From Saccharicrinis sp. (GTDB lineage Bacteria; Bacteroidota; Bacteroidia; Bacteroidales; Marinilabiliaceae), in the NCBI GenBank assembly GCA_024635555.1, contig JAGXIO010000137.1:5986-69985 (forward strand): DNA of 64,000 nt. Direction: 5' to 3'. Below, in pieces: positions 1,038 to 49,361 of the stretch. A program made the position numbers and the translations under genes. Below the pieces are notes generated by a model, which was not told the origin of the DNA, searched no databases, and was given only the letters and a program-made list of their open reading frames with translations. Numbering within the stretch: position 1 is the first letter of the stretch; the number at the start of each line of letters is the position of its first letter.

Positions 1038-1051
1038 TAAAGTGATAAATT

Positions 1052-2954: not shown

Positions 2955-3116
2955 AACTATTAAAATAATAGGATTAAAATATGCGAATTGTAAACCTAGC
3001 TTAGCTTTTTAAAATCAGCACATTGTATCTGAATTTAAAATATACATATGGTAATAGCATATTAATATAGTATGTAAATCAACAAGATTGCTATTGTAAC
3101 TTATCTGTTCATGTTC

Positions 3117-3124
3117 TAAGTTTG
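3117..3124 (+). promoter_or_regulatory. Candidate Bacteroidota -7 promoter box (TAAGTTTG) for cysK
   Basis: Matches TAnnTTTG, 48 nt upstream of the cysK ATG. Confidence 0.3.
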
Positions 3125-3171
3125 TAATCAGATATTATTAATTATTAAGGACAACTATAAACAATATAATT

Positions 3172-4089
3172 ATGAGTAAAATTGCCAATAGTATTATCGA
3201 TTTGATAGGAAATACACCTTTGGTGCAAATAAACCGTCTTAATGACGGAGGGGCGCAGGTGGTAGCCAAACTCGAATTTTTCAATCCGGCCAGCTCGGTA
3301 AAAGATCGTATTGCTCATGCGATGATAGACGATGCCGAACGTAACGGCAAGCTGGATAAAGACACCGTTATTGTAGAGCCTACCAGCGGAAATACTGGAG
3401 TAGGTTTGGCTTTTGTGGCAGCTGTTAAGGGCTATCGCCTTATTTTAACTATGCCAGAGAGTATGAGCATTGAGCGCCGTAAGCTTCTCAAAAAGTTTGG
3501 TGCCGAATTGGTTCTAACTCCTGCCGCTCAAGGTATGAAGGGTGCTATTGCAAAGGCAGACGAAATAGCGGCGGAGCATAAAAAATCATTTGTACCACAG
3601 CAGTTCAATAATCCGGCAAACCCTTCTATTCACCGTTGCACTACAGCACATGAAATTTGGAATGATACCGATGGTAATATCGATGTTTTTGTGGCTGGCG
3701 TAGGCACAGGCGGAACAATAACTGGAGTGGGAGAGGAGTTGAAGAAGAAAAACCCAAACCTAAAAGTAATTGCGGTTGAACCTATGGATTCGCCTGTCAT
3801 ATCTGGCGGTCAACCGGGGCCACATAAAATTCAGGGTATTGGCGCCGGTTTTATTCCAGCTAATTTAAATATCGACATTATCGACGATATTATTAAGGTG
3901 AGTAATGAGGATGCAGTACACACCTGCCACAGGGCTGCAAAGGAAGAAGGTATTTTGTGTGGTTATTCATCGGGTGCTGCGCTTTGGGCTGCTATTGAAG
4001 TTTCAAAACGCCCTGAGTTTAAAGGCAAACGTATTGTTGTTCTTTTACCTGATACAGGAGAGAGGTACCTTAGTACCTTTGAGATATAA
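3172..4089 (+). CDS. cysK: Cysteine synthase A (O-acetylserine sulfhydrylase)
   Basis: Has the SVKDRIA PLP-lysine motif and the GTGGTITG loop. Full-length at 305 aa. Confidence 0.95.
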
Positions 4090-4095
4090 AAAAAA

Positions 4096-4122
4096 AGGTG
4101 CGATTTATCGCACCTTTTTTTT
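4096..4122 (+). terminator. Rho-independent terminator after cysK (A-tract / stem / T-tract, potentially bidirectional)
   Basis: AGGTGCGA-TTTA-TCGCACCT stem followed by TTTTTTTT, preceded by an A-run. Confidence 0.8.
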
Positions 4123-4145
4123 GCTTGTTTTTAGCTTTACCATAT

Positions 4146-4179
4146 AAAACTCAATGAGTCCTGCGATTCATTGAGTTTT
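4146..4179 (-). terminator. Hairpin terminator downstream of carB
   Basis: 12-bp arms AAAACTCAATGA / TCATTGAGTTTT around a 10-nt loop, 17 nt past the carB stop. Confidence 0.6.
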
Positions 4180-4195
4180 ATTTTTATCCATATTC

Positions 4196-7100
4196 TTACT
4201 TATATTCTTGCCAGCTCTTTATCTTAATATCCTCCACTCCCAATTTACAAAATGCATTAATAAAAGCACTTGCCAATCGGGCATTAGTTATTAATGGAAT
4301 ATTAAAGTCAATGGCGCTTCGTCGTATCTTATAACCATTGCGTAGCTCGCTTGTGCTCAGGTTTTTTGGGATATTCACAACCAGGTCAATCTGCTTATTG
4401 CGAATCATCTCCAGCGAATTAGGATGTTGATCTGGCTCACTAGGCCAGTAAATAAGGGTTGTATCCACATCGTTTTCCGTAAAAAACTTATGCGTTCCAC
4501 CGGTGGCAAAAAGCTTAAATCCATTTTTCTTTAGTAAGCGTGCACTTTCTAACAGTTCGAGTTTTGAGCGCAGGGGACCCGATGAAATCAAGATATTCTT
4601 TTTAGGAATGGTATAACCTACCGATAACATGGCGTTGAGGATGGCCTCATCAAACGTATCTCCGATACAACCAACTTCGCCTGTTGACGACATATCAACA
4701 CCCAATACCGGGTCGGCCTTGGCCAAACGGGCAAAGGAGAATTGGGGTGCTTTGATACCCACACAATCTAGGTCGAACAAGTTCTTGCTGGGCTTTTCTA
4801 CTTCCATGCCCAACATCACCCTGGTGGCAATATCAATCAGGTTTACCTTAAGTATCTTGCTCACAAAAGGAAAACTCCGCGAAGCCCTTAGGTTACACTC
4901 TATTACTTTTAGCTCGTTATTTTTACCCAGTATTTGCATGTTAAAAGGACCCGATATATCCAGTGCCTTAGCAATTTCGCGGGCTATTTTTTTAACTCGA
5001 CGCAGCGTTTCGATGTATATTTTTTGCGGAGGGAAAACGATGGTAGCATCTCCTGAGTGAACCCCGGCAAACTCCACGTGCTCTGAAATGGCATAAGCTA
5101 CCAGCTCACCATTCTTGGCTACTGCGTCCACCTCTATTTCCTTGGCTTCTTCAATAAACTCCGAAACTACCACAGGATATTCTTTAGAAACATTGGCTGC
5201 CAATTCTAAAAAGTGCTCCAACTCGTCCTTGTTGCTCACCACGTTCATGGCGGCGCCGGATAGTACGTAACTTGGCCTTACAAGCACAGGGAAACCGACT
5301 TCATCCACAAAAGTAAAAATATCCTCCACCGTGGTAAGCTCGTTCCAGCGTGGCTGATCAATACCCAAGCTGTCCAACATCGACGAAAACTTCTGACGAT
5401 TCTCTGCATTATCGATATTCTCGGGTGATGTTCCCAAAATAGGTACGTTTTGCCCATGTAACTTCATGGCTAGGTTATTTGGAATCTGACCTCCAACTGA
5501 AACAATAACTCCCTTGGGTGCTTCCAGTTCGATGATATCTAGCACACGTTCAAACGAAAGCTCATCGAAGTAGAGCCTGTCGCACATATCATAATCGGTA
5601 CTCACCGTTTCGGGATTGTAGTTAATCATTACCGAACGGTACTTTTGCTCGCGGATGGTGTTGAGGGCATTTACACTACACCAATCAAATTCTACAGAGC
5701 TGCCAATGCGATAGGCACCACTGCCCAATACAATCACCGAATTTCCGTCTTTCTCATACTCTATATCGTGTTCTGTACCACTGTAGGTTAAATATAGATA
5801 ATTGATTTTTGCCGGAAACTCGCCGGCCAAGGTGTCAATTTGTTTAACTACCGGTAAAATATTGCGCTTTTTGCGTTCCGTTCTAACCTTTAGCAGGTCG
5901 TTTCCAATTACTTCGCTGGTGCTTTTGAAAATACAACGTGCTATCTGAAAATCAGAGAAACCCATTCTTTTAGCGTCACGAAGTAAAACGTCGGTTAAAC
6001 TCTCCAGTTTTGAGTAGGTTTTTAATTCCTTTTCTAAATTGGTAATATTTTTTAGCTTTTCCAGAAACCAGTGGTCTATTTTGCTTAATTGGTGTATTTC
6101 GTCAACGCTCATGCCCATGTTAAAAGCTTCCGCAATGGCATATATACGTTGATCGGTAGGTTCGGCTAGTTCAGTTCTTACATCTACACCTTTGAAGGGT
6201 TGGTTGGCAACAAAACCGTGCATCCCTTGCCCTATCATCCGCAGTCCTTTTTGTATGGCCTCCTCAAAAGTTCGTCCGATGGACATAATCTCGCCAACCG
6301 ACTTCATGCTGCTGCCTATCTGCTTGCTTACACCATTAAACTTATTAAGGTCCCAACGGGGTATTTTACAGACTACATAATCCAGTGCGGGTTCAAAAAA
6401 GGTGGATGTTACCTTGGTCACAGAGTTCTGAAGTTCATGCAATCCATATCCCAAACCTAATTTTGCAGCCACAAAGGCCAACGGATATCCGGTGGCTTTG
6501 GAAGCCAAAGCACTGGAACGCGATAAACGGGCGTTAACCTCAATTACACGGTAATCTTCCGATTCAGGATCTAATGCGTACTGAACGTTACATTCTCCAA
6601 CTACGCCAATATGTCGGATAATTTTTATGGCCAGTTCTCGAAGTTTATGATATTCGGCGTTCGATAGGGTTTGTGAGGGTGCTACCACAATACTTTCTCC
6701 GGTGTGAATACCCAGCGGATCAAAGTTTTCCATATTACAAACCGTGATGCAGTTGTTATACTTGTCGCGTACCACTTCGTACTCCACTTCTTTCCATCCC
6801 TTTAGCGATTCCTCAACAAGTATCTGATCCGAATAGGAGAATGCATTTTCGGCACGTTCTTTTAGTTCCTCTTTACTATTGCAAAATCCACTTCCCATAC
6901 CACCAAGTGTGTATGCAGCGCGAACAATAATGGGGAAACCTATCTTGTCTGATGCATCAAGGGCAGCCTGAACAGACGTTACAGCAAGACTAACCGGTGT
7001 TTTTACATCAATCTCCTTTAGCTTGTTGGCGAAAATTTCGCGGTCTTCGGTATTAATAATCGACTGTACAGGCGTTCCTAATACCTGAATATTGTACTTC

Positions 7101-7420
7101 TCAAAAATGCCCGCTAAATAAAGCTTGGTGCCACAGTTTAACGCTGTTTGTCCTCCAAAAGCCAATAAAATACCTTGCGGTTTTTCTTTTTTAATTACCT
7201 CCTCCACAAAAAAGGGAGTAACAGGTAAAAAATAAATTTTGTCGGCAAGTTTATCCGATGTTTGAACGGTGGCAATGTTTGGGTTCACCAAAACCGTTTC
7301 TATACCCTCTTCCTTTAATGCTATAAGGGCTTGAGAACCTGAATAGTCAAACTCTCCTGCTTCGCCTATTTTTAGCGCACCCGAACCTAGTACTATTACT
7401 TTTTTAATGTCTTTGATCAT
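4196..7420 (-). CDS. carB: Carbamoyl-phosphate synthase large subunit
   Basis: 1074 aa counted from MIKDIKKVIVLGSGALKIGEAGEFDYSG. Two ATP-grasp halves and an MGS-like C-terminus. The ORF-track start at 7597 is an upstream extension that overlaps the argR leader. Confidence 0.95.
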   Translation of the reverse strand: MIKDIKKVIVLGSGALKIGEAGEFDYSGSQALIALKEEGIETVLVNPNIATVQTSDKLADKIYFLPVTPFFVEEVIKKEKPQGILLAFGGQTALNCGTKLYLAGIFEKYNIQVLGTPVQSIINTEDREIFANKLKEIDVKTPVSLAVTSVQAALDASDKIGFPIIVRAAYTLGGMGSGFCNSKEELKERAENAFSYSDQILVEESLKGWKEVEYEVVRDKYNNCITVCNMENFDPLGIHTGESIVVAPSQTLSNAEYHKLRELAIKIIRHIGVVGECNVQYALDPESEDYRVIEVNARLSRSSALASKATGYPLAFVAAKLGLGYGLHELQNSVTKVTSTFFEPALDYVVCKIPRWDLNKFNGVSKQIGSSMKSVGEIMSIGRTFEEAIQKGLRMIGQGMHGFVANQPFKGVDVRTELAEPTDQRIYAIAEAFNMGMSVDEIHQLSKIDHWFLEKLKNITNLEKELKTYSKLESLTDVLLRDAKRMGFSDFQIARCIFKSTSEVIGNDLLKVRTERKKRNILPVVKQIDTLAGEFPAKINYLYLTYSGTEHDIEYEKDGNSVIVLGSGAYRIGSSVEFDWCSVNALNTIREQKYRSVMINYNPETVSTDYDMCDRLYFDELSFERVLDIIELEAPKGVIVSVGGQIPNNLAMKLHGQNVPILGTSPENIDNAENRQKFSSMLDSLGIDQPRWNELTTVEDIFTFVDEVGFPVLVRPSYVLSGAAMNVVSNKDELEHFLELAANVSKEYPVVVSEFIEEAKEIEVDAVAKNGELVAYAISEHVEFAGVHSGDATIVFPPQKIYIETLRRVKKIAREIAKALDISGPFNMQILGKNNELKVIECNLRASRSFPFVSKILKVNLIDIATRVMLGMEVEKPSKNLFDLDCVGIKAPQFSFARLAKADPVLGVDMSSTGEVGCIGDTFDEAILNAMLSVGYTIPKKNILISSGPLRSKLELLESARLLKKNGFKLFATGGTHKFFTENDVDTTLIYWPSEPDQHPNSLEMIRNKQIDLVVNIPKNLSTSELRNGYKIRRSAIDFNIPLITNARLASAFINAFCKLGVEDIKIKSWQEYK

Positions 7421-7460
7421 TTGTAAATGGCTATTATAAAATGGATATAATGGTATTCGA

Positions 7461-7525
7461 GTGCAAAAATAGAAATTTTTTGCAAAAATCATTTGAATAT
7501 TTTCAAAATCTGTATATTTTTGCAC
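7461..7525. promoter_or_regulatory. Divergent carB/argR control region: mirrored -7 boxes plus a central ARG-box-like palindrome
   Basis: Perfect 11-bp inverted repeat GTGCAAAAATA (7461-7471) / TATTTTTGCAC (7515-7525). Each arm contains TATTTTTG reading toward its own gene. Palindrome TTTGAA-TATT-TTCAAA lies at 7492-7507, and a further TTGAATAAATAT half-site at 7531-7542. Confidence 0.5.
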
Positions 7526-7545
7526 TGCAATTGAATAAATATACA

Positions 7546-8019
7546 ATGAAAAGTAAAGCGCAAAGATTAGTGGCAATTCAAAATATAATAAGCACACAAA
7601 AGATAAGCTCTCAGGAAGAGTTATTGCATCTTATGGAAAAGCTTGAGTTTGTAACTACTCAGGCCACTTTATCGCGCGATTTGAAATTTTTAAAAGTGGG
7701 CAAGATACCACATCCTGATAAAGGCTATGTGTATGAACTGCCTTCGGGAGCGCAAAGGCAGTTCAATGAGGTACAGGACGATTTTCCGATTGGAAGCGTT
7801 GAATCCATTAATTACAGCGGCAATCTGGTGGTTATTAAAACCCGACCTGGCTTTGCCAATGGGGTGGCCTCTGTTATTGATAGTCACGACCCATACGAAA
7901 TATTGGGTACCATTGCCGGCGACGACACAATTTTGTTGATTATAAGGGAAGGTGTTTCGAGAGGACATATATTTGAAACATTATCGATGTTTATTCCAGG
8001 GCTTAAAAGTAAAGTCTAA
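7546..8019 (+). CDS. argR: Arginine repressor
   Basis: MKSKAQRLVAIQNII...TQATLSRDLKFL wHTH and a C-terminal GTIAGDDTILLI arginine-binding core. Start moved to the ATG at 7546. Confidence 0.9.
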   Translation: MKSKAQRLVAIQNIISTQKISSQEELLHLMEKLEFVTTQATLSRDLKFLKVGKIPHPDKGYVYELPSGAQRQFNEVQDDFPIGSVESINYSGNLVVIKTRPGFANGVASVIDSHDPYEILGTIAGDDTILLIIREGVSRGHIFETLSMFIPGLKSKV

Positions 8020-8045
8020 CTGTTGATTAAGAAGTAAGAAAGTAA

Positions 8046-8789
8046 ATGAAAGACGAATTTTATATTGATATAGCGAAAGAATCCCATTTAAAATATGTGG
8101 ATGAGATACTCGAGACTATTGCAGACGCTGCAAGGGTAAGGGGTACGGGTATTGCCAAGCGCAGTCCGGGCTATATTATTCAGAAGATAAACGAAGGCAA
8201 GGCCATTATAGCTTTGCAAGGAGATACTTTTGCCGGTTTTTGCTACATAGAAACCTGGGGGCATGATAAGTTTGTGGCCAACTCAGGTTTAATTGTGGTT
8301 GAAGCATTTAGAGGCAAGGGTTTGGCCAAGGCCATTAAAACAAAAGCCTTTGACTTGTCGCGAAAAAGATACCCCGACTCTAAACTGTTTGGTTTGACAA
8401 CAGGACTTGCCGTGATGAAAATCAATTCGGAGCTGGGATATGTACCTGTTACCTTTTCGGAACTTACCGACGACGAGATGTTTTGGAAAGGCTGTCAGAG
8501 CTGTGTGAATTATGATATTCTTACCCGTACAAACCGTAAGCATTGCCTTTGTACCGGTATGTTGTACGATCCGCAGCGCGTAAAAAAGAAAGATGAAGAA
8601 GAGCCAAAGAGTTTGAGCGTATATAAAAGATGGTTGAGGTTTAAACAGTCTGTATTCCTTAATGGGGATAAAAAAAAGAACAGCAACCCAAAAAATGAGA
8701 CCGATTCAAAAAAGGAGGCTGACCAGAAAAGTGAGAACGGCAAGTCATCCTACTTTAAAAAGTTGAATTTGAAATTTTTCTCATTTTAA
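8046..8789 (+). CDS. GNAT-family N-acyltransferase conserved in Bacteroidota arg clusters (candidate N-acyl-glutamate synthase), with a Lys/Glu-rich C-terminal tail
   Basis: GNAT core (VVEAFRGKGLAKAIK). Cys cluster CQSC...CLC. The last ~55 aa are low-complexity and K-rich. Confidence 0.6.
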   Translation: MKDEFYIDIAKESHLKYVDEILETIADAARVRGTGIAKRSPGYIIQKINEGKAIIALQGDTFAGFCYIETWGHDKFVANSGLIVVEAFRGKGLAKAIKTKAFDLSRKRYPDSKLFGLTTGLAVMKINSELGYVPVTFSELTDDEMFWKGCQSCVNYDILTRTNRKHCLCTGMLYDPQRVKKKDEEEPKSLSVYKRWLRFKQSVFLNGDKKKNSNPKNETDSKKEADQKSENGKSSYFKKLNLKFFSF

Positions 8790-8929
8790 TAGCAACTATT
8801 TCTAAATTATTTAGGTTGAAATTAATTGGGCTCACAATTATTGAAGAAGCAAATTGAAAAAGAATATTAAAAAAGTAAATGTAGAGGCGAGAAAAGATTA
8901 TCAACTCGTCAAATAAAATAAAAGATAAA

Positions 8930-10132
8930 ATGGAAAAAATAGTATTAGCTTTTAGCGGTGGTTTAGACACATCGTTTTGTGTTAAATATTTAAAGCACGA
9001 AAAAAATCTTGATGTATATTCGGCTATTGCCAACACAGGAGGATTCGGAAATGAGGAATTAGTAACCATTGAAGAAGGTGCATACAAATTGGGCGTAACA
9101 AAACATGTTACCTTAGATGTAACCGATGTTTATTACCGCAATTGCATCCGATATATGATTTTTGGTAACATCTTAAAAAATAATACCTATCCATTATCGG
9201 TAAGTTCCGAGCGAATTTTTCAGGCATACGCCATTGTGGATTATGCGCGTAAAATTGGTGCAAAATATATTGCCCACGGAAGCACAGGAGCTGGTAACGA
9301 CCAAGTGCGTTTTGACCTTACTTTTAAGATTATAGCCCCCGAAATTGAAATAATCACTCCCATCCGCGATTTGACTTTATCGCGTCAGCAGGAAATAGAG
9401 TATCTGATTAAACATGGCGTAGAAAAGGATTGGAAAAAGATGGAATACTCCATCAACAAAGGACTTTGGGGAACCAGTGTTGGAGGCAAAGAAACGCTTA
9501 CCTCCAATAAATCCTTACCCGAAACGGCCTATCCAAGCCAATTGAAGAGTCAGGAGCCAGCAGAATTGACCATTGAGTTTATCAAAGGGGAAATTGCCTC
9601 GGTAAACGGCGAAACCTTTGCCACGCCCGTTGATGCCATCCGAAAAATAGAGGCCATCGGTTCGGCTTATGCCATTGGACGCGATACCCATGTGGGCGAT
9701 ACCATTATTGGTATAAAAGGAAGAGTTGGCTTTGAGGCTGCCGCTCCCATGCTTATTATCAAAGCGCATCATCTGCTCGAAAAGCATACCCTTACCAAAT
9801 GGCAAATGTACTGGAAGGAGCAATTGAGTAACTGGTATGGTATGCTGTTGCACGAAGCCCAATATGTGGAGCCAGTGATGAGGGATATTGAAAAGTTTCT
9901 CGACAACTCCCAGCAGAATGTTACGGGCAAAGTTATCCTTAAACTTTACCCATACCGCTTTGAAACGGTGGGCATTGAATCAGATAACGACCTAATGAAC
10001 TCCGGCTTTGGTGATTATGGTGAGGTAAACAAAGGATGGAGCGGCGATGATGTAAAAGGATTCACGGCCATATTGGGTAACCAACTCAAAATTTTTAACA
10101 GTGTACACAAAGGCCAGTTGGATATCGAATAA
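8930..10132 (+). CDS. argG: Argininosuccinate synthase
   Basis: AFSGGLDTS ATP-PPase motif; 400 aa. Confidence 0.95.
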   Translation: MEKIVLAFSGGLDTSFCVKYLKHEKNLDVYSAIANTGGFGNEELVTIEEGAYKLGVTKHVTLDVTDVYYRNCIRYMIFGNILKNNTYPLSVSSERIFQAYAIVDYARKIGAKYIAHGSTGAGNDQVRFDLTFKIIAPEIEIITPIRDLTLSRQQEIEYLIKHGVEKDWKKMEYSINKGLWGTSVGGKETLTSNKSLPETAYPSQLKSQEPAELTIEFIKGEIASVNGETFATPVDAIRKIEAIGSAYAIGRDTHVGDTIIGIKGRVGFEAAAPMLIIKAHHLLEKHTLTKWQMYWKEQLSNWYGMLLHEAQYVEPVMRDIEKFLDNSQQNVTGKVILKLYPYRFETVGIESDNDLMNSGFGDYGEVNKGWSGDDVKGFTAILGNQLKIFNSVHKGQLDIE

Positions 10133-27646: not shown

Positions 27647-28969
27647 TCAGTCCATTACAAACTTAACTCCCACTGTAATAATATTTGAACTAAAAGTAGT
27701 ATTCCTGTCATATTGATAGAATTTTAAATCGATACTTTTTAGCCCAAATTTCCAAATATGTGTTTTTGTAAAGATATCTGTGTATGCAACGCCAAAACCA
27801 AACTGATTTGACGAGTATTCAGAAAGGTCGTAATCGGAGGTGTAGAACTTATCCGTCGATAAAGCACTCTCGTAGGGATTGAAATAATCGGCCGCAGTTT
27901 GGTTATAGAATCTATAAGAAGGGTATAGGGTAAACTTATCCGTAATTTTAATGGGCACTTCAATGCTGGCTGTATGCGAAGTAATCCCCCAGTCATCAAA
28001 ATAGTACCGATAAAAAGTTCTCAAAACAATAGTTTCATTTAAGTACCCGTTTAATCTACCCCCAATGGCAACTTTAAATCTACTATCGGGTAATTGCTCC
28101 ACGCCATCGGCAAGTTGAAAGTTGTCGATAAAAGAATCCTCCAAATCCTTAAAATATACCCTTTGAAAAGGCGTAGATAATAAACCTTGTTGTTTAACAA
28201 CGTCCAACAGTAAAGAGCCTTGTATGTTTTTATGCAAAATCTGAGAAAAACCAAAGCCCAAAGAGTATGAGTTACGGCCCTCACTGTTAAATTCACTAAA
28301 ATTAGGATTGTAATTGGTATTACCGGTAATGGTATTTCTTCTAAATAAGCTATTGTTTAATCCATTCCCTCCTTTGGCAAAGGGTCTTAATTCATAAGGA
28401 TAAATAGCCTTCCATGTATCGATATACACATTAAGATGAGCACTTATTTCGGTATTTTGTTCATGGAACAACTTCGTGTACGAGCCTCCAACTCCGGTCG
28501 AAACATAATCAAACTCTGTAGATACAGAAACTTTGGCCGACCATATATTATTGCGGTCGTCGGAACTATGACTATAGCCTCCTGTAAAATTTGTCCACAC
28601 ATCGCTACTTGAAGCACCAGAAGAGGCCTGAAAAGGGTCTGCTTGTCCATGGTCAAAAGGGTTTATATTACTTGATGAAGCAGATGTGTATGCCGATATT
28701 CCAGCATCGATGCTTAAAACATCATCATCGTTCAAAGGAATAGAAATTACAATTGTTCCTGTAATATCGTCTAACTTCTCGCTACCAATGCCACCGCTAA
28801 CAGCTGCATTGTCGCCATCCTGACCATAGTAGCTCGTTAGAAAATCGACTTCGGTGGTTTCGAGTACACGCTTTTTATAAATAGAAGCACTGTCCGGTAT
28901 TTGTTGTGCAAAACTTGCAAATGAAGCAAGTAAGAGGCTTGTTGAGAAAAAATATTTTAAAATACACAT
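27647..28969 (-). CDS. DUF3570-family predicted outer-membrane beta-barrel protein
   Basis: Signal peptide MCILKYFFSTSLLLASFASFAQQ, alternating beta-strand pattern, C-terminal VGVKFVMD. Start moved to the ATG at 28969; the track ORF runs into the upstream gene. Confidence 0.6.
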   Translation of the reverse strand: MCILKYFFSTSLLLASFASFAQQIPDSASIYKKRVLETTEVDFLTSYYGQDGDNAAVSGGIGSEKLDDITGTIVISIPLNDDDVLSIDAGISAYTSASSSNINPFDHGQADPFQASSGASSSDVWTNFTGGYSHSSDDRNNIWSAKVSVSTEFDYVSTGVGGSYTKLFHEQNTEISAHLNVYIDTWKAIYPYELRPFAKGGNGLNNSLFRRNTITGNTNYNPNFSEFNSEGRNSYSLGFGFSQILHKNIQGSLLLDVVKQQGLLSTPFQRVYFKDLEDSFIDNFQLADGVEQLPDSRFKVAIGGRLNGYLNETIVLRTFYRYYFDDWGITSHTASIEVPIKITDKFTLYPSYRFYNQTAADYFNPYESALSTDKFYTSDYDLSEYSSNQFGFGVAYTDIFTKTHIWKFGLKSIDLKFYQYDRNTTFSSNIITVGVKFVMD

Positions 28970-28989
28970 AAATTTCAGATAAGTAGATG

Positions 28990-29202
28990 TTAATTGCAGC
29001 CGCAGCCTCCTCCGGTTTTTCCTCCGTTCGCACCCACGGCAGCCTCTCGATACGAATGCATCGTGGATAGATTTCGGTCGCATTTCTTTTCGGAAAGTGC
29101 CATGTCGGGGTCGTTGATGTTTACTTTTTCATACTCTTTTACCACAGCGCAGCTGCTAAAAAAGTAAGCCAAGAGACACAATGTTACTATTTTTCTCATC
29201 AT
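28990..29202 (-). CDS. DUF4266-family small lipoprotein
   Basis: Lipobox FFSSC. The C-terminus GGKTGGGCGCN matches what I recall as the family signature. There is a 4-nt ATGA overlap with the apbE stop. Confidence 0.65.
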   Translation of the reverse strand: MMRKIVTLCLLAYFFSSCAVVKEYEKVNINDPDMALSEKKCDRNLSTMHSYREAAVGANGGKTGGGCGCN

Positions 29203-30179
29203 AACTTATCAATCTTTATATGGTCTGATTTGCTAATGTTGCCGTCATCATCTATAATTATACATTCTATTTTAGGCAATTGATTGATGCGGTGCAAGCC
29301 TGCCTCTTTACCCATTACAAATACAGAAGTGGCGAGTGCATCTGCAAGTTCCGCTTTTGGAGCAAATACTGTAACGCTAATAATACCAGTCGAGGGATAC
29401 CCTGTGCGCGGATCTATAATATGCGTATATCTTTTTCCATTAAAATTTACATACTTTTCGTAATTTCCGGAGGTTACCACTGCGCCGTTGCCTATGGGCA
29501 ACAAGGCAAATACCTTATTTTTATTTAGGGGATTGGTAATAGCAACTTTCCATTCGCTACCATTGGGTTGCTTGCCCCAAACGGCCATATCTCCCGAGGC
29601 ATTGATGATGCCGGATGCAACTCCTTTAGAGATAAGTAAATTCTTTGCCATATCTGCCGCATACCCTTTACCAATAGCACCAAAGCCAATTTTCATTCCC
29701 TCAATTCTCAGAAATACTGTATTGTTGAGTTTATCCAACACGATATTTTCATAGCCTACTTTGGTTACGGAATTAGAAATTTGTTCTTTGGATGGCATTT
29801 GGGTCATACTTCCGTCGAATTTCCAAATCCTGTCCATTGAAGCATAGCTGATATCAAAAGCGCCATCGGTCAATTTTGAAATTACTATGGCTCTCTCTAT
29901 CAGGTTAAAAAGTTCGACTTCAACTTTTGTTGGTTTTATTCCTGCATTTTCATTAATCTGTGAAGTTTGAGAGTTTGTATCCCACGAAGAAATTAATTTT
30001 TCTATACGAGTAATCTCTGCAATAGCAATATTAATATTTTTAATCGCTTCGAGTGAATCCTTGGCTACCACAGTAATATCAAAACGACTGCCCATTAGTT
30101 TGAGCGTGCGTTTGTAGGGCTGTTGGGCCCTACATGCCATCGGAAAAAACAGGATAATTATAATGAAGAATTGTTTCAT
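29199..30179 (-). CDS. apbE: FAD:protein FMN transferase (flavin transferase ApbE), secreted
   Basis: Signal peptide. MGSRFDITV...GFGAIGKGYAADM...HIIDPRTGYP motifs. Confidence 0.9.
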   Translation of the reverse strand: MKQFFIIIILFFPMACRAQQPYKRTLKLMGSRFDITVVAKDSLEAIKNINIAIAEITRIEKLISSWDTNSQTSQINENAGIKPTKVEVELFNLIERAIVISKLTDGAFDISYASMDRIWKFDGSMTQMPSKEQISNSVTKVGYENIVLDKLNNTVFLRIEGMKIGFGAIGKGYAADMAKNLLISKGVASGIINASGDMAVWGKQPNGSEWKVAITNPLNKNKVFALLPIGNGAVVTSGNYEKYVNFNGKRYTHIIDPRTGYPSTGIISVTVFAPKAELADALATSVFVMGKEAGLHRINQLPKIECIIIDDDGNISKSDHIKIDKL

Positions 30180-30271
30180 TTTTTAAAATTCGAAAAACCT
30201 TGATAAAGAGTATGATTTGTAATCGTGCTCCAATGGACTCTATTATTTGTTCCCTGCCTGCCGGTTTCAGC

Positions 30272-30712
30272 TTATTTAATAAATTTATTTAACTCTTCAA
30301 TATAGGCTTTTGGCGTGGTCTTTTTGTAACTTGTTTTTCCCAATACCTTTCCCTTATTATCTAAAACAACAACCAACGGGAACACACCATTGTTATTATA
30401 GGTTTCGGCTAATTCTGCATTTGCTTTGGTCTGAGATTCTGACAAAGCGTTTTTCTTTTTTCGTGGGAAATCGGCTTGTAACATTACATAATTGCTTTTT
30501 GCATATTCTTTAAATGTGTCTGTACTCCATATCTCCCGGTCTAATTTAATACAAGGTGCACACCAATCCGAGCCCTGAAATACCAACACTATCGGTCTGT
30601 TTTCGTGGCTTGCAATTTTTTTTGCCACTGTAAAATCTGTTTGCCAATCTTGTGCAATTGCCGCAGTTAAATTCAGGAGTGCAATGAGTAATACGATTAA
30701 TCTATTTTTCAT
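30272..30712 (-). CDS. Periplasmic thioredoxin-fold protein (WCAPC active site)
   Basis: Signal peptide plus FQGSDWCAPC. Co-directional with, and upstream of, apbE. Confidence 0.8.
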   Translation of the reverse strand: MKNRLIVLLIALLNLTAAIAQDWQTDFTVAKKIASHENRPIVLVFQGSDWCAPCIKLDREIWSTDTFKEYAKSNYVMLQADFPRKKKNALSESQTKANAELAETYNNNGVFPLVVVLDNKGKVLGKTSYKKTTPKAYIEELNKFIK

Positions 30713-42271: not shown

Positions 42272-42883
42272 TTACCGGACACCACTTTTCGCTGTAAGCT
42301 TTACGCTTCTTTTCAGCTTACTGCTTGCTGTTGACTGGATATACTCCGCTATCAAATTTGTTTTTTGCCGGATATCTTCCGTTATCGCATTTACCGAAAC
42401 AGTGGCTCCGGATATGGAATCCACATCCTTCCCCACTATCAGTTCTGTTTTGTTGTTATAGTCCATAAACTGTTTTAACCACCCTCTAGCCATTACTTCG
42501 TGACCGTGGGTAGCCGCATAGTTAAATATTTTAACCAACTCCACTTTTGCATGCCCATCAAAAAGAATAAAGTAATCAAAATACTCTGATGTTCCGGATG
42601 TTTCGTTATTAATGGAGCAGCCTCCAGTCCTGCAACTATTCACTCTCCCAACATAAACGTATTTTGTTTGTGCTCCCACCATAGTAAAAAACCGCCCTTC
42701 TACCGGAATATTAGCATTGATATCTATCTGGATAAGTTCATCGATATCTGAACTCCAGCATTTCTCTATTTCCTTTTTTAAGGCTTTAGCGGTGTAATCC
42801 ACTTGGGTTTGAGCACTGCTGATGCCAACAATAAGCCACGATATAAGGACGATTAAAATACTACTATGTTTATTCACCATCAT
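42272..42883 (-). CDS. Secreted FMN_bind-domain protein with a canonical flavinylation motif
   Basis: Signal peptide. DSISGATVS at nt 42395-42421 (predicted target Thr161). Also RVNSCRTGGCS and ATHGHE motifs. Confidence 0.75.
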   Translation of the reverse strand: MMVNKHSSILIVLISWLIVGISSAQTQVDYTAKALKKEIEKCWSSDIDELIQIDINANIPVEGRFFTMVGAQTKYVYVGRVNSCRTGGCSINNETSGTSEYFDYFILFDGHAKVELVKIFNYAATHGHEVMARGWLKQFMDYNNKTELIVGKDVDSISGATVSVNAITEDIRQKTNLIAEYIQSTASSKLKRSVKLTAKSGVR

Positions 42884-42940: not shown

Positions 42941-44143
42941 TTAAAACATCAACCCAAAGCCTGCATTAAAAGTGGCTTTCGCCTTATCGTCGGCCTCTGT
43001 TTTCACAAACTGCACATCCGTTTTAAATGCTACATTGGGATCCATTTTCCAAGTTAAACCCGCGGTGATTACACTAGCAGCATAGGCTTTGTTTCTTACT
43101 ATTCCCTGTTCAACGGAGTTTTGCGTATCGTATCTCTCGATCCTTACAAACGGGATTAGCTCGGTTTTAACCTGCTCAAGCGTATTAAAAACGTTGTAGG
43201 CCACCTCGGCATAATAACCGATCATAGATTTTCCCATATCGTTGTTCTTTCCCTTGGAGGCAGTAAATTCGTTATACTCCTTGGTATTGCCCAAACTATT
43301 ATAATAAAACTGACCTCTGATTTGAAGTCCACTTGTTGAGTAACGAAGGTCAGCACCTATCATGGCCATATTGACAATTGAAGAGTCGGCCAGCGCCAAG
43401 GCATTATTGTCGTCTTTGTTTATGCCATCGTACAAGGTGCTTTGTGACTTACCAAAATATCCCGACAAGCCCAGATTAAGTCCCCTGACACCAAAATACT
43501 CGATTTTTGCGGCAAAGTTGGGCGAGCTGATATAAGATTCTGCTCCCTTTTGCCGACCTTTACGCAAACCATCCTTGCCTCGAAATTTACCCGTTCCGTC
43601 AAAGCCGTTAAAACCATTCATTACATAAGCCTGATAACGCATTTTGGCCGGAACAAAAACCCCAGTAAAACCTAAACCAATCTCGCGCCATGTAGAGGGT
43701 GCAATCAAATTGTCGATATGTGGGCGTTCTACCCCATTAAAAGTATTAGGCTCGTGGTATTCGTTAACAATACCCATAGGAGTTAATATTAAACCAGCTC
43801 TTAGGTTAAATGCGTTGTTTATTTTGTATTGCATAAAAGCCTGCTCCACATAAACCTCGCTCACATGCTCATATTCAATCTCGCTAATAAATTGTGTCCG
43901 TTCGTTAAATTGGTAACCCAACAGCATTACAACCCTGTGGACGTCTAATGTTCCGTTGCTTCTTACTTCGGAACTTATGGGCTGGTTGTAGTGTACCTCG
44001 GCATAACCGCCTATTTTTAGGTTGCCTTCGGTTTGTAGCAATCTTTCGGCTGCATTAAAATATAAATTTTTATTCTCGGTTGACTGCGCTCTCATCAAAA
44101 TAGAACACGCTGCAAAAGCAAGGATTAAAAATAATGTCTTCAT
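42941..44143 (-). CDS. Outer-membrane porin (OprO/P-like beta-barrel)
   Basis: Signal peptide, LKIGGYAEVHYNQ start, C-terminal GFGLMF. 57 nt upstream of the FMN_bind gene. A candidate -7 box (TACCTTTG on the minus strand) lies at 44203-44210. Confidence 0.6.
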   Translation of the reverse strand: MKTLFLILAFAACSILMRAQSTENKNLYFNAAERLLQTEGNLKIGGYAEVHYNQPISSEVRSNGTLDVHRVVMLLGYQFNERTQFISEIEYEHVSEVYVEQAFMQYKINNAFNLRAGLILTPMGIVNEYHEPNTFNGVERPHIDNLIAPSTWREIGLGFTGVFVPAKMRYQAYVMNGFNGFDGTGKFRGKDGLRKGRQKGAESYISSPNFAAKIEYFGVRGLNLGLSGYFGKSQSTLYDGINKDDNNALALADSSIVNMAMIGADLRYSTSGLQIRGQFYYNSLGNTKEYNEFTASKGKNNDMGKSMIGYYAEVAYNVFNTLEQVKTELIPFVRIERYDTQNSVEQGIVRNKAYAASVITAGLTWKMDPNVAFKTDVQFVKTEADDKAKATFNAGFGLMF

Positions 44144-44456: not shown

Positions 44457-45485
44457 TTAATATTTCCATTTGTTTGCCAATGCCACCAATGTCAACATTA
44501 TAGGTACTTCAACCAATACGCCAACAACGGTTACCAATGCCGCAGGAGATTGCAAGCCAAAAAGTGCGATTGCAACAGCAACGGCTAGTTCAAAAAAGTT
44601 ACTGGCTCCAATCATTGCTGAAGGCGAACAAATAGCATGAGGCAATTTTAACTTTCTTCCCACAAACCATGTGAGGAAAAATATAAAATAGGTTTGAATG
44701 ATTAGCGGAACTGCTACCAATAAAATAATTAGTGGGTTGTCTGTAATTGTATTTCCTTGAAAGGCAAATAACAACACCAATGTTAGTAATAATGCGATAA
44801 TAGATACAGGCTTAAATTTTGCTAGGAATGTACTTTTAAACCATTCTTCACCTTTTCTATTAATAACAACTTTATTAGTTATATAACCCGCGAGAAGCGG
44901 TACTACAACAAATATTGCAACACTAGATATAAGGGTGTCATAAGGTACTTGTATGTTTGTAATGCCTAATAACAGACCTACAATTGGGACAAAAGCCACT
45001 AAAATTATCAAGTCGTTTACCGATACCTGGATCAGCGTGTAATTTGGATCTCCATTGGTTAAATAACTCCACACAAACACCATGGCAGTGCAGGGGGCGG
45101 CGCCCAGTAAAATAGCGCCTGCAATGTATTCGCCAGCCAATTCGGGGCTTATAAATGCAGAATAAATCTTTGTGAAAAATATCCAGGCAAAAAATGCCAT
45201 GGTAAAAGGTTTTATCAGCCAATTGATCACAAGGGTTAGGATTAGACCTTTGGGGCGCTTTCCAACGTTTTTAATGCTCGAAAAGTCAATTTGAAGCATC
45301 ATCGGGTAAATCATTAACCAAACCAAAACGGCAACAGGTATATTTACGTTAAATATTTCCATTTTGCTCAAAACAGAAACGCTTTCGCCGGCAATATTAC
45401 CAATAAAAATACCTGCTCCAATGCACAGCGCAACCCAAAGTGTGAGATATTTTTCGAAAAATCCGATTTGCTTTTTTGCGTCCAT
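44457..45485 (-). CDS. acr3: Arsenite efflux transporter, ACR3 family
   Basis: 10-TM BART-superfamily pattern with the conserved Cys in GAAPCTAMV. Confidence 0.9.
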   Translation of the reverse strand: MDAKKQIGFFEKYLTLWVALCIGAGIFIGNIAGESVSVLSKMEIFNVNIPVAVLVWLMIYPMMLQIDFSSIKNVGKRPKGLILTLVINWLIKPFTMAFFAWIFFTKIYSAFISPELAGEYIAGAILLGAAPCTAMVFVWSYLTNGDPNYTLIQVSVNDLIILVAFVPIVGLLLGITNIQVPYDTLISSVAIFVVVPLLAGYITNKVVINRKGEEWFKSTFLAKFKPVSIIALLLTLVLLFAFQGNTITDNPLIILLVAVPLIIQTYFIFFLTWFVGRKLKLPHAICSPSAMIGASNFFELAVAVAIALFGLQSPAALVTVVGVLVEVPIMLTLVALANKWKY

Positions 45486-45487
45486 GA

Positions 45488-45922
45488 TTATAATTGCGGT
45501 TTGATTCGTTCGACATAGAATTTATAAAAACCCTCTTTAATTTCATCCCGAACACGTATAAACTCACTCCAAATAAATTCATCGGTTCCAGTAGCGTGTG
45601 ATGGGTCGTCAAAGCCAATGTGTAAACGATGTTTTACTTTTCCCATAAAAGCAGGACAAGCTTCGTTTGCCCCACCACAAACAGTAATTACATAGTCCCA
45701 TTCATCACGAAGAAATTTTTCAACTGAATCAGAGGTATGTGTGCTAATGTCTAAACCAATTTCAGACATGGCCTTAACAGCCTTTGCATTTAATTTGCCA
45801 GAAGCTTCTGTTCCTGCTGAACAAACGGTTAAGTTGGCATCAAAAGATTGTAAAAATCCATGTGCCATCTGGCTGCGGCAACTATTGCCAGTGCATAAAA
45901 TTAAAACTTTCATATTATTCAC
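45488..45922 (-). CDS. arsC: Arsenate reductase, LMW-PTPase (thioredoxin-coupled) type
   Basis: ILCTGNSCRSQMA P-loop plus downstream Cys residues. Confidence 0.9.
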   Translation of the reverse strand: MNNMKVLILCTGNSCRSQMAHGFLQSFDANLTVCSAGTEASGKLNAKAVKAMSEIGLDISTHTSDSVEKFLRDEWDYVITVCGGANEACPAFMGKVKHRLHIGFDDPSHATGTDEFIWSEFIRVRDEIKEGFYKFYVERIKPQL

Positions 45923-46247
45923 ATTTATAAGTTTGCGTATTCAAATTTTCAAGAAACAGTTCAAGGGCTTGTTTCAATTCATTCACTTTTTTGGGATTCA
46001 GGCAATACTTGGTTGTAACACCTTCAATGTGTCCCTGAATTAATCCAATAGCTTTTAATTCTTTAATGTGCTGGTTTACTGTTGTCCTTCCCAAAGGTAA
46101 TTCGTCGGAAATATCGCCCGTAATGCACGATTTTGATTCTGCTAGAAATTGAAGTATTTGTAATCGTGCAGGGTGCGCCAAAGCCTTAAAATAACTGGCG
46201 TTGACTGTAAATTCTTTTTCAAACAATTCGGATTTAGATTGTACCAT
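45915..46247 (-). CDS. arsR: ArsR/SmtB-family metalloregulator (paralog 1)
   Basis: ALAHPARLQILQFL...CITGDISDEL...TVNQHIKELK. 8-nt overlap with arsC. Start set to the ATG at 46247. Confidence 0.85.
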   Translation of the reverse strand: MVQSKSELFEKEFTVNASYFKALAHPARLQILQFLAESKSCITGDISDELPLGRTTVNQHIKELKAIGLIQGHIEGVTTKYCLNPKKVNELKQALELFLENLNTQTYKCE

Positions 46248-46256
46248 TTCATCTTC

Positions 46257-46305
46257 TTTGACGCAAACATACGTCAAATATTTTTTATGACGTACCTATA
46301 CGTCA
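46257..46305 (-). promoter_or_regulatory. Two TGACG/CGTCA palindromes, candidate ArsR-1 operators
   Basis: TTTGACG-N8-CGTCAAA (46257-46278) and TGACGTA-CCTA-TACGTCA (46288-46305). ATACGTCAAA is repeated directly 29 bp apart. Confidence 0.6.
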
Positions 46306-46401
46306 AAATGTAACCAAATTGTAATATTTTAGATTCTTAAAACCATTTGAGTTCCATTTTGTAATCGCCATAATTAGAAGGATAAATGCAAGGATTATTT
46401 T

Positions 46402-47529
46402 TTAAAGCACGAGATTGAATAAATACCCAAGAAGAATAATGAACAAGGTGATGGTACCAAAGAAAATACTTATCAGCTTCCACTTCATAACTTTCTTTAA
46501 TAAAGTTGCCTCCGGCAATGACAATCCTACTATAGCCATCATAAAAGCAATGGCTGTTCCAAGCGGTACTCCTTTAGCTACAAATACCTGGATGATAGGA
46601 ACTACACCAGCAGCATTCGCATACATGGGAACAGCGAGGATTACAGCTAGTGGAATGGCATACCATTTATCGGCTGATAAAAACTCTGTAAAGAAATATT
46701 CAGGAACGTAGCCATGCATGGCAGCTCCAATGGCAATTCCAATAATCACATACAAAAGCACTTTCCGAACAATATCCCATCCGTCTTTAATAATCGTTGG
46801 AAGACGGTCTATGAATGATGTTTTTTCACCATTCCATTCTTCATTTTCTTGTATAGCATTATCCTGTATTTGGCGTACCCAATCACTTAGATATTTATCC
46901 AGTTTAAGTTTTCCCAGGAAAAACCCACCCATCATACCCATTAAAATTCCCGATCCGGCATAGATGACAGTAGCCTTTATACCAAATAAACCTAAAAACA
47001 TGGCTACTGCTACCTCGTTCACCAAGGGAGAGGTTATCAGATAAGCAAAGGTTACTCCCAACGGAATGCCTCCTTTTACAAAACCAATAAACAAAGGGAT
47101 TGATGAGCAGGAACAAAATGGAGTGACGGCACCAAAAAATGAGGCAAAGAGATATTCCAGCCCATATATTTTTTTTGTTGTCAGATAAATCCGCAAACGA
47201 TCCACAGGGAAATAAGCATTTACAACTCCCATCAAACTGCTGATGAGGAATAGTAGAATTAAGATTTTAATAGTATCGTAAAAGAAAAAGTTGATTGCTT
47301 CCCCTAAGTGCGATTCGGGCTTGAGTTTTATTAAATCATAAGTAAATGAATCAACCAACAAAGGTAAATAGTGATACAGCGCTATCAAAAGTGGCAAAAC
47401 CGTTAAAATTAACAGCACTAGTTTTGTTTGATTTTTCTTTTTCTGATTTAATTTATTCTGACTTTCAAGAGCAAAAAAAGCACCTTCAGTTTTATCTCCA
47501 CTTTTTTTGAAAAAGTTAAATCTACTCAT
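46402..47529 (-). CDS. Predicted permease of the ArsP-like family (two-domain permease with vicinal Cys motif)
   Basis: AVTPFCSCSSIP motif and a polytopic duplicated structure. Sits in an ArsR-controlled operon. Confidence 0.65.
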   Translation of the reverse strand: MSRFNFFKKSGDKTEGAFFALESQNKLNQKKKNQTKLVLLILTVLPLLIALYHYLPLLVDSFTYDLIKLKPESHLGEAINFFFYDTIKILILLFLISSLMGVVNAYFPVDRLRIYLTTKKIYGLEYLFASFFGAVTPFCSCSSIPLFIGFVKGGIPLGVTFAYLITSPLVNEVAVAMFLGLFGIKATVIYAGSGILMGMMGGFFLGKLKLDKYLSDWVRQIQDNAIQENEEWNGEKTSFIDRLPTIIKDGWDIVRKVLLYVIIGIAIGAAMHGYVPEYFFTEFLSADKWYAIPLAVILAVPMYANAAGVVPIIQVFVAKGVPLGTAIAFMMAIVGLSLPEATLLKKVMKWKLISIFFGTITLFIILLGYLFNLVL

Positions 47530-47582
47530 TATTTATTTATTTGATTGTTCGTAAATAAGCGAACAGTATTGGTAAATTTTTT

Positions 47583-48281
47583 TTAGAAATAAATTGTGAA
47601 TATATAATATACCCCAACAACAATAAACGATAGAGCAACCACACGCCTAAACCATAGCTCAAAGGTTTTTAGTTTATTGTAAACATGGCCAAGAGAACCG
47701 ATGCTAAAAGCAATGAACCACGCAAAAATTATAACGGGAATACCTGTGGCAATAGCAAAAATAAATGGTAGAAATAATCCACTTGCATTGCTAACAGTTA
47801 AGGGCATCAGCATGCCAAAATATAGCACACCACTGTACGGGCAAAATGCTAATGCAAATACAATCCCCAAAAACAGAACACCCCAAAATCCACTATTTGA
47901 CTTATTTTCCATTTTCTCGGTTAAGAAACTAATACCGGGTATCTTTAGTTTTAAGACGCCAAGCATAAACAAACCGATTATAATCAAAAGCGGCCCCAAT
48001 AATTTTTCGCCCCACTCCTGAAAGAACCCCGCAAATTCGAATTGACTTGCCCCAAAAAAGAAAAGTAAACCAATGGCAGTATATGAAATTGCCCTACCCA
48101 AGGTATAAACCAAACCATTCACAAAAACCTTGCGCTGACTTTTAATATCTTTACTAATATAGCCTATGGCTGTAATATTAGTTGCCAATGGGCAGGGACT
48201 TATGGCAGTCATAAGTCCCAGAATAAATGCCGTGAATATTGGAAACTGCGATGTTTCCAGAAAGTTTTGTAATACTTCCAT
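47583..48281 (-). CDS. DsbD/CcdA-like (cytochrome c biogenesis TM region) membrane protein; resembles proteins I recall being labelled ArsG-family
   Basis: Six predicted TM helices with the AISPCPLATN motif. 2-nt gap to the upstream gene. Confidence 0.5.
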   Translation of the reverse strand: MEVLQNFLETSQFPIFTAFILGLMTAISPCPLATNITAIGYISKDIKSQRKVFVNGLVYTLGRAISYTAIGLLFFFGASQFEFAGFFQEWGEKLLGPLLIIIGLFMLGVLKLKIPGISFLTEKMENKSNSGFWGVLFLGIVFALAFCPYSGVLYFGMLMPLTVSNASGLFLPFIFAIATGIPVIIFAWFIAFSIGSLGHVYNKLKTFELWFRRVVALSFIVVGVYYIFTIYF

Positions 48282-48283
48282 TG

Positions 48284-48721
48284 TTACATCATTGAATCAA
48301 CAGTCGATTTAAGTTTTGCCTTAAATTTATCGGGATTAGTTCGTGCATTCATAAAAGCATCGTTGGTTAAATTAACAACCTTATCGTCTTTAATAATAAG
48401 TAGCGTTTGACCACTAATTTTATATTTTTCAATCATTGGGTTGTCTTTGTTTTCATCTCTGTTTATGGATTCAAAAGTTACTTTTTCGCCATAATATTCC
48501 TTAATTGCCTCCTTCGAAACGGCTTCCACAGCCTCACAAGTTGCGCAACGTCGGGATGCATGAAAATAATAGGCTTTTATTTCGCCTGTTTTTTGACTTA
48601 CAACGTCGGTTCCTTTTTCGGTACTTGAATTATCTGTAGCCGCGCTACTGCAACATTGTGCCGATACAGCAACTACCCCCATAAAAAGGATTAAAATTAA
48701 AGTGCTAATATTTTTTTTCAT
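48284..48721 (-). CDS. Secreted thioredoxin-fold CxxC protein; resembles proteins I recall being labelled ArsF-family
   Basis: Signal peptide and ASRRCATCEAVE (CxxC). Confidence 0.5.
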   Translation of the reverse strand: MKKNISTLILILFMGVVAVSAQCCSSAATDNSSTEKGTDVVSQKTGEIKAYYFHASRRCATCEAVEAVSKEAIKEYYGEKVTFESINRDENKDNPMIEKYKISGQTLLIIKDDKVVNLTNDAFMNARTNPDKFKAKLKSTVDSMM

Positions 48722-48740
48722 TTTGATTTTTTTAGATTGA

Positions 48741-48974
48741 TTATTTACTTAGTAATTTTGCTATTTCATCTACCGAGGGTACTCTTCCTTTAACCACTAT
48801 TTCGCCGTTCACAACCAAAGCAGGCGTGGTCATTACGCCAAAATTCATAATTTCAACAATGTCTTCCACCTTTGTTATGGTCGCATTTACTCCGGTTTTC
48901 TCAACCGCTTCTTTGGTCGCTTTTTCAAGTGACTTGCATTTTGAACATCCTGTGCCCAATACTTTGATTTCCAT
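48741..48974 (-). CDS. Small thioredoxin_3 / redox-active disulfide protein 2-like protein
   Basis: MEIKVLGTGCSKCKSLE...TTPALVVNGE. Start set to the internal ATG at 48974; the track ORF starts at 49004. Confidence 0.75.
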   Translation of the reverse strand: MEIKVLGTGCSKCKSLEKATKEAVEKTGVNATITKVEDIVEIMNFGVMTTPALVVNGEIVVKGRVPSVDEIAKLLSK

Positions 48975-49061
48975 GCCTGCAAGTTTTAAATTGTTTAAAT
49001 CCATGTTGTTGATATTTGGCGTTCGTCATTCGCAAAACAACGAACATTAGTAGTATTTTTT

Positions 49062-49361
49062 TTAGATATTTAAAAACTGTTTAAAGAGTTGTTGTGCTTC
49101 TTTCCAGTTTTCCTTATTTATACAATATTTTATACGGGGTGATTCAATTTCGCCCTGAATCAAACCTGCATCTTTTAATTCTTTCAGATGCTGTGATAAC
49201 GTTGATTTTGCAATGGGCAAATCATCGCTCAAATCGCCACTATAACAACAACTTTGATTCGAAAGCAATTCTAAAACATACATCCTTACCGGATGGCCCA
49301 TGGCCTTAGCGTAACGAGCTGCCCGCTTTTGTTTGTCCGTAGTAACTAATTTAGCACTCAT
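49062..49361 (-). CDS. arsR: ArsR/SmtB-family metalloregulator (paralog 2, vicinal Cys in helix 3)
   Basis: AMGHPVRMYVLELL...SCCYSGDLSDDL...STLSQHLKELK. Confidence 0.85.
   Translation of the reverse strand: MSAKLVTTDKQKRAARYAKAMGHPVRMYVLELLSNQSCCYSGDLSDDLPIAKSTLSQHLKELKDAGLIQGEIESPRIKYCINKENWKEAQQLFKQFLNI

Follow-up and report, generated by a model that had tools for sequence, protein, structure and literature searches.

The 64 kb stretch of Saccharicrinis sp. DNA analysed here (the window) carries on its minus strand four co-directional genes predicted to act in the cell envelope. They encode a thioredoxin-like (Trx-like) protein, the FAD:protein FMN transferase ApbE, a small DUF4266 lipoprotein and a protein of the DUF3570 family. 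Which protein receives the flavin from an ApbE encoded in such company? A preliminary description of the locus saw no recognisable flavinylation substrate in the operon and held that neither DUF family had an assigned function. Both statements are superseded by a study of 'orphan' apbE genes and the DUF3570 genes adjoining them, in which DUF3570 was published as a class of ApbE substrate with two conserved [S/T]GA[S/T]-like serine motifs (Méheust et al., eLife 2021; PMC8238504); the window protein has both motifs. The paradox of an ApbE without a client was thus already solved in 2021, and the window holds one more copy of a widespread cluster, an ordinary orthologue of an already-known system. 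The operon is probably the published ApbE/DUF3570/Trx-like/DUF4266 envelope module in its minimal form, without DsbD, and probably acts by the steps proposed below.

The operon and its conservation

The first gene of the operon encodes the Trx-like protein (30272-30712, minus strand like the other three; 146 aa), whose WCAPC active site lies at 30551-30565. It is followed by apbE (29199-30179; 326 aa), the DUF4266 lipoprotein gene (28990-29202; 70 aa) and the DUF3570 gene (27647-28969; 440 aa). The profile searches bear out all four assignments, with scores above the Pfam cut-offs for PF02424 in ApbE (286.7 bits, cut-off 25.6), PF12094 in DUF3570 (131.6 bits, cut-off 25), PF14086 in DUF4266 (67.3 bits, cut-off 27) and PF13899 in the Trx-like protein (53.1 bits, cut-off 27). 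The gene positions given in the preliminary description hold, as do the WCAPC thioredoxin fold and the statement that the three partners of ApbE lack an FMN_bind domain (Pfam scan). The stop codon of apbE and the start codon of the DUF4266 gene share the four nucleotides ATGA (29199-29202), an overlap read from the sequence that points to translational coupling, and the ATG of DUF3570 stands 20 nt past the DUF4266 stop. As a result apbE ends 230 nt upstream of DUF3570, with DUF4266 alone in between. A longer DUF3570 open reading frame (ORF) of 478 aa, starting at the ATG at 29083, was discarded because it would overlap DUF4266 and exceed the 437-454 aa of homologues.

How constant is this arrangement? 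A protein search with DUF4266, taking one genome per species, gave 80 loci, all from Bacteroidota: mostly Flavobacteriaceae, with some Cyclobacterium, Saprospiraceae and Chitinophagales (synteny beyond the phylum is taken from PMC8238504 only). By tblastn, Trx-ApbE-DUF4266-DUF3570 is the gene order in about 76 of the 80, and the exceptions are mostly contig ends, plus one locus (L001) without a long Trx match. The ATGA coupling of apbE and DUF4266 is found in 77/80, and in locus L081 the four-gene order is identical although its DUF3570 is only 30% identical to that of the window. The four-gene arrangement is not a product of chance. Since the genes flanking the operon in the window, PurH and RecQ, recur in a single one of the 80 loci (L002), the four genes form a self-contained travelling module.

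In the window the trx and apbE genes are separated by a spacer of 92 nt (30180-30271), which could contain an internal promoter. In most related loci the two genes nearly abut by tblastn (Trx match ending at 5019, ApbE starting at 5024). Spacings derived from ORFs whose starts had been placed mechanically at the first Met proved unreliable and are disregarded. A scan of the operon for sigma-70 promoters and terminators returned fewer sites than shuffled controls, the sigma-70 model being uninformative for a Bacteroidota genome.

DUF3570 as the probable substrate of ApbE

The assignment of the transferase covers the whole domain: ApbE matches PF02424 with E=2.5e-85 over profile positions 1-266 of 266. 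Among solved structures it matches the FMN transferases 7esa (E=1.6e-47), 1vrm, 6nxi and 4xdt, and in all 7esa and 12 other solved ApbE/Ftp sequences. The export signals of all four proteins were read by eye; that of ApbE, MKQFFIIIILFFPMACRA followed by QQ, resembles a Sec signal. The protein most likely has a plain signal peptide, with cleavage between MACRA and QQ, rather than being a lipoprotein. Its Cys16 is missing in 56 of 82 ApbE ORFs from the related loci, a soft count in which starts were set mechanically at the first Met. The window contains a single ApbE.

What is known of the substrate comes from the DUF3570 of Chlorobium luteolum, to which the cognate ApbE attaches flavin in Escherichia coli. 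Flavinylation was lost only when serine was changed to alanine in both motifs, and the flavinylated protein was found mostly in the insoluble cell pellet (PMC8238504). In the window protein the first motif is T95-S96-A97-S98 (28676-28687) and the second S117-G118-A119-S120 (28610-28621), both on the minus strand; S98 and S120 are the predicted acceptors because ApbE modifies the last Ser or Thr of the motif. An exhaustive HMMER search gave 1617 DUF3570 cluster representatives at E<=1e-3, and the conservation of the motifs was read from an alignment of the window protein with 104 full-length representatives that are 28-65% identical to it (n=105). Seven columns of this alignment are invariant, and A97 and S98 (both 105/105) are two of them; S96 is conserved in at least 90%. 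The first motif is TSAS in 65 of the sequences and SSAS in 33. S120 is present in 101 of the 105, and the second motif is SSAS in 57, SGAS in 9, TSAS in 8 and TGAS in 6. The preliminary description had noticed SGAS and treated it as weak evidence. It is one of two conserved sites, and the other, TSAS, had been overlooked. From the conservation of the motifs, the coupling of the genes and the C. luteolum homologue, we infer that DUF3570 is the cognate flavinylation substrate of the operon's ApbE.

A third conserved stretch, YYxQDGxxSAVTGGxGTExL (residues 47-66; 28772-28831, minus strand), spans the end of strand 1, loop L1 and the start of strand 2 of the model described below. Within it Q50, G52 and G60 are invariant in the alignment, and Y47, Y48, V57, G59, G62 and L66 are conserved in at least 90%. 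It is a candidate cofactor-contact loop.

The DUF3570 protein has a signal peptide ending in SFA, followed by QQ, and the mature protein has no cysteine; any thiol-flavin chemistry must therefore be intermolecular. There is no solved sequence relative of DUF3570 in the PDB. An AlphaFold2 model built on the 105-sequence alignment has a mean predicted local distance difference test score (pLDDT) of 92.2, a predicted template-modelling score (pTM) of 0.86 and 16 beta-strands. A Foldseek search of the PDB with this model returned outer-membrane barrels only (OccK/OprD, FadL, PgaA, OmpG and AlgE, TM-scores 0.33-0.43). The C-terminal residue is Asp, not an aromatic one. DUF3570 is predicted to be a 16-strand outer-membrane beta-barrel; of the earlier '441-aa barrel', the barrel stands and the length becomes 440 aa.

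In the model, the side with the N and C termini carries the short turns (T1-T5, 2-5 residues), and the long loops L1 (52-65), L2 (97-121), L4 (187-230), L5 (263-295) and L7 (358-384) lie on the opposite side. Both flavinylation motifs are on L2, where confidence is lower in the block 111-120 (pLDDT 58). Of the 45 most conserved positions, 23 fall in the far-side loops, 20 in strands (mostly at their far-side ends) and one in a turn on the terminal side. Termini and short turns of outer-membrane proteins are usually periplasmic, and for this reason the conserved, flavin-bearing face would be placed at the extracellular or lumenal end of the barrel. The word 'barrel' does not appear for DUF3570 in the 2021 study (PMC8238504), and a section of a 2024 follow-up paper touches only briefly on flavinylated domains located in the outer membrane, with no description of a DUF3570 barrel. 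The structural reading is a modest addition, not a discovery.

Some distant DUF3570 representatives are longer, 494-525 aa (P0158, P0220, P0231, P0241, P0246, P0259 and P0261), and have long low-complexity inserts at L4. The inserts are poly-Asp/His or Gly/Ser-rich; L4 accommodates long inserts of varying sequence, and the motifs beside it do not change.

The DUF4266 lipoprotein and the Trx-like protein

The DUF4266 protein has a lipobox in which FSS precedes Cys18, leaving a mature peptide of 53 aa. It matches its Pfam profile at positions 1-50 of 50. Its glycine-rich tail ends in GGGCGCN, as first described, that is C67-G-C69-N, with CGC encoded at 28996-29004. The tail TGGGCGCN is found in 80/80 loci, and across 63 homologues 31 of the 70 columns are invariant, the mature peptide being nearly unchanged between genera. 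The only invariant cysteines of the mature peptide downstream of the lipobox are those of the CGC pair; Cys41 varies among the 80 loci. Despite this conservation of sequence, AlphaFold2 gives the protein alone a pLDDT of 56.8, falling below 50 in the tail (58-70). The pattern of the model fits a peptide with no autonomous fold that folds on a partner.

The Trx-like protein has a signal peptide ending in AIA, followed by QD, and matches PF13098 (40.9 bits) besides PF13899. Its nearest solved structure is DsbH of Chlamydia (2ju5, E=1.1e-16). Is it, then, a DsbH? The NCBIfam equivalog model for DsbH (NF043050) gives it 91.1 bits, below the cut-off of 190, and DsbH proper was rejected in favour of a relative within the Thioredoxin_7 family. 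With DsbH and the C-terminal domain of DsbD it has in common an exported thioredoxin fold and a CxxC site. This site is WCAPC in the window protein, as it is in 69 of 78 orthologues; another 7 have WCGPC. The C-terminal domain of the DsbD proteins encoded next to the operon in relatives belongs to the same Pfam family as the Trx-like protein. By its sequence, it is probably a periplasmic disulfide reductase.

In one related locus (L084, 123-1505, plus strand), from a Bacteroidota metagenome-assembled genome, a single protein of 460 aa fuses the Trx-like protein to ApbE (PF13098/PF13899 and PF02424) directly upstream of DUF4266-DUF3570. The DUF3570 of this locus is 41% identical to the window protein.

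Relation to the published system

In the 2021 survey, clusters of ApbE, DUF3570, a PF13899 thioredoxin and DUF4266 were counted 227 times with DsbD and 316 times without it, and a VIT1 gene was present in 25 clusters. The authors suggested that these clusters encode a hybrid system for electron transfer, made up of thioredoxin and flavin, that is supplied by DsbD and possibly linked to iron via VIT1 (PMC8238504). The alternative that the preliminary description had left open, an envelope redox module in which the CGC tail and the thioredoxin are the redox partners, is essentially this proposal. The window operon has the same four Pfam families and a DUF3570 with the two serine motifs, and its relatives have DsbD and VIT1 adjoining. 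All the testable defining features of the published cluster are found except the co-location of DsbD, which places the operon in the DsbD-less class (the 316). A further difference lies in the motifs, which in this Bacteroidota clade are TSAS and S[S/G]AS.

How does DUF3570 compare with classical ApbE clients, the FMN_bind proteins NqrC, RnfG and PplA and the membrane proteins NqrB and RnfD? In all of them an extracytosolic S/T-G/S-A-S/T motif takes FMN on its last Ser or Thr. Unlike the classical clients, DUF3570 has neither an FMN_bind nor an NqrB fold (Pfam); it is a predicted barrel in which a single loop carries both sites, and its acceptors are Ser rather than Thr.

New here are the barrel model, with both flavin sites and almost every invariant residue placed at its far end, the unfolded DUF4266, the DsbD, VIT1, heavy-metal RND and Crp neighbours in relatives, and the single Trx::ApbE fusion. 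These observations make the question of the physiological role of the DUF3570 system easier to test.

A proposed route for electrons

How would the four proteins work together? As read from their sequences, all four would be exported through Sec. In the periplasm ApbE would use FAD to attach FMN, as a phosphoester, to S98 (in TSAS) and S120 (in SGAS) of DUF3570. This step probably precedes insertion into the outer membrane, because ApbE accepts short linear tags, down to seven residues (PMC12052999); the presence of most of the flavinylated C. luteolum protein in the insoluble pellet points the same way. DUF3570 would then fold as a 16-strand barrel in which, according to the model, L2 with its FMN-bearing serines would form, together with L1, L4, L5 and L7, a conserved site opposite the termini. 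The lipid-anchored DUF4266 would dock on DUF3570, and its CGC dithiol/disulfide would trade electrons with the flavins. The Trx-like protein would recycle the CGC pair through WCAPC and would in turn be recycled by a DsbD encoded elsewhere in the genome. The VIT1, Cus/Czc-type RND and imelysin/di-haem neighbours of related operons point to a role in metal, probably iron, redox chemistry of the envelope.

Several points weigh against this scheme. That DUF4266 contacts DUF3570, and which way electrons would run, is conjectural. The loops of DUF3570 are placed, as a surface cap or in the lumen, only by the order of strands and loops in the model. The second position of the motifs is mostly Ser in this clade, compared with Gly in the published [S/T]GA[S/T], and S98 and S120 are presumed to be the two serines mutated in C. 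luteolum DUF3570 (ABB24424.1). Within the window no full-length DsbD (PF02683; tblastn), VIT1 or RND gene was found. One related locus (L082) consists of DUF4266, DUF3570 and a full-length DsbD, with ApbE and the Trx-like protein not adjoining.

A bolder extension concerns the barrel itself. Could DUF3570 be a haem-free, flavin-based electron conduit of the outer membrane, in which the DUF4266 tail threads in from the periplasm and brings its CGC beside the two FMNs? This is speculative, and we regard it as rather unlikely. If true, the conduit would connect the thiols of the DsbD/thioredoxin pathway with an acceptor, such as Fe(III), on the cell surface or outside the cell. Marine Flavobacteriaceae and the other Bacteroidota that carry the operon would then possess a novel type of redox device in the outer membrane, the haem-free counterpart of porin-cytochrome complexes. 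The porin-cytochrome conduits of Shewanella (MtrAB/MtrCAB) combine an outer-membrane barrel, redox cofactors and a lipoprotein partner, and a functional analogy is possible in that electrons would move across or at the outer membrane. In contrast to these conduits, the DUF3570 system lacks haems; it resembles them neither in sequence nor closely in structure, and its cofactor would be covalent FMN on a loop of the barrel.

Neighbouring genes and alternative explanations

The ORFs flanking the 80 loci were clustered and their representatives scanned against Pfam. On the same strand as the operon, a CusB-type membrane-fusion protein recurs in 23 of the 80, a resistance-nodulation-division (RND) pump with an OEP domain in 13, VIT1 in 13, an HD-domain protein in 13 and a Crp-type regulator in 10. 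A full-length DsbD (N domain, transmembrane domain and Trx domain) directly follows DUF3570 on the same strand in 11. In L053-L056 (about 840-9650), and also in L003, L011, L017 and L021, the core genes lie inside a longer same-strand run. Its order is CusB-type membrane-fusion protein, VIT1, HD-domain protein, Crp, Trx, ApbE, DUF4266, DUF3570 and full-length DsbD, which suggests a metal-related island. None of these recurrent extra neighbours lies within the window.

Is the operon then a metal-handling module? In such a module DUF4266 would hold a Cu, Fe or Zn ion at its CGC, and the task of the flavinylated barrel would be to reduce metal ions or pass them across the outer membrane. The proposal overlaps with the electron route set out above. 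The same-strand CusB-type, RND, VIT1 and Crp-type genes speak for it, as do the genes for an imelysin-like Peptidase_M75 and a di-haem oxidoreductase that precede the operon in L081 and the VIT1 genes of the 25 published clusters (PMC8238504). However, the window and most of the 80 loci are without these metal genes, and no metal-binding domain was detected by Pfam in the four proteins. The Trx-like protein and DsbD are more constant partners, which fits disulfide chemistry. Metal handling as the primary task is, on balance, unlikely.

Another possibility is that the Trx-like protein is a maturation factor rather than a steady electron donor, keeping the cysteines of DUF4266 or the client of ApbE in the right redox state during export and flavinylation. 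The Trx::ApbE fusion of L084, and the position of trx immediately upstream of apbE in most relatives, would suit such a role. Against it, mature DUF3570 has no cysteine in need of protection, and the full-length DsbD encoded beside the operon in 11 loci, and again in L082, speaks for electrons being supplied all the time; in L082, moreover, this DsbD accompanies DUF4266-DUF3570 with ApbE not adjoining. A maturation role in place of steady electron donation appears improbable.

Does ApbE work mainly for clients elsewhere, such as an FMN_bind protein (42272-42883) or NqrB/C-type proteins encoded outside the window, with DUF3570 as an unflavinylated neighbouring porin? That would be very surprising. 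In its favour, the window has a single ApbE and a canonical SISGAT FMN_bind protein 12 kb off, and DUF3570 has TSAS and SGAS in place of the classical D-x-x-S-G-A-T. Against it, flavinylation of a DUF3570 homologue by the cognate ApbE is published (PMC8238504), and the S98 and S120 motifs vary little or not at all. ApbE and DUF3570 also remain together in about 76/80 loci whereas the flanks change, and a tblastn query found the FMN_bind gene beside none of the 80 operons. The distant substrate that the preliminary description had offered as its other alternative is not needed to account for the operon; nor is it exclusive of DUF3570. It is plausible that ApbE serves both DUF3570 and the FMN_bind protein, which would be compatible with flavinylation of DUF3570 as the core of the module.

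Other genes of the window and minor observations

The FMN_bind protein (minus strand) is an exported protein of 203 aa that scores 24.9 bits against PF04205 (cut-off 22). It has a canonical D-x-x-S-G-A-T site, KDVDSISGATV, with SISGAT at 42401-42418, and is a possible second client of the operon's ApbE. Directly upstream of its gene lies that of a barrel-like protein of 400 aa with a signal peptide and no Pfam match (42941-44143, minus strand), which by its sequence looks like a porin-type barrel. The two may be a second case of a flavoprotein paired with a barrel of the outer membrane.

The only DsbD-family gene of the window is part of an ars-like operon on the minus strand (44457-49361). 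The genes of this operon encode ArsR (49062-49361), a small thioredoxin of the Thioredoxin_3 family (48741-49004), a weak thioredoxin-like protein (48284-48721), a DsbD_2/DsbD_TM protein (47583-48281), an ArsP_1 permease (46402-47529), a second ArsR (45915-46277), an LMWPc/ArsC-type phosphatase (45488-45922) and an SBF/ACR3-type transporter (44457-45485). The DsbD_2 protein, 17 kb off, was considered as the missing DsbD and rejected because of its place in the ars-like operon; it is probably unrelated to the DUF3570 operon.

Among the related genomes, some hold two copies of the operon on different contigs: Maribacter ulvicola (L003 and L042), Psychroserpens damuponensis (L028 and L035), Winogradskyella pulchriflava (L031 and L076) and a Wocania metagenome-assembled genome (L009 and L027). 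An additional ApbE is encoded upstream of the operon in L038 and L069, and L069 also has an extra Trx.

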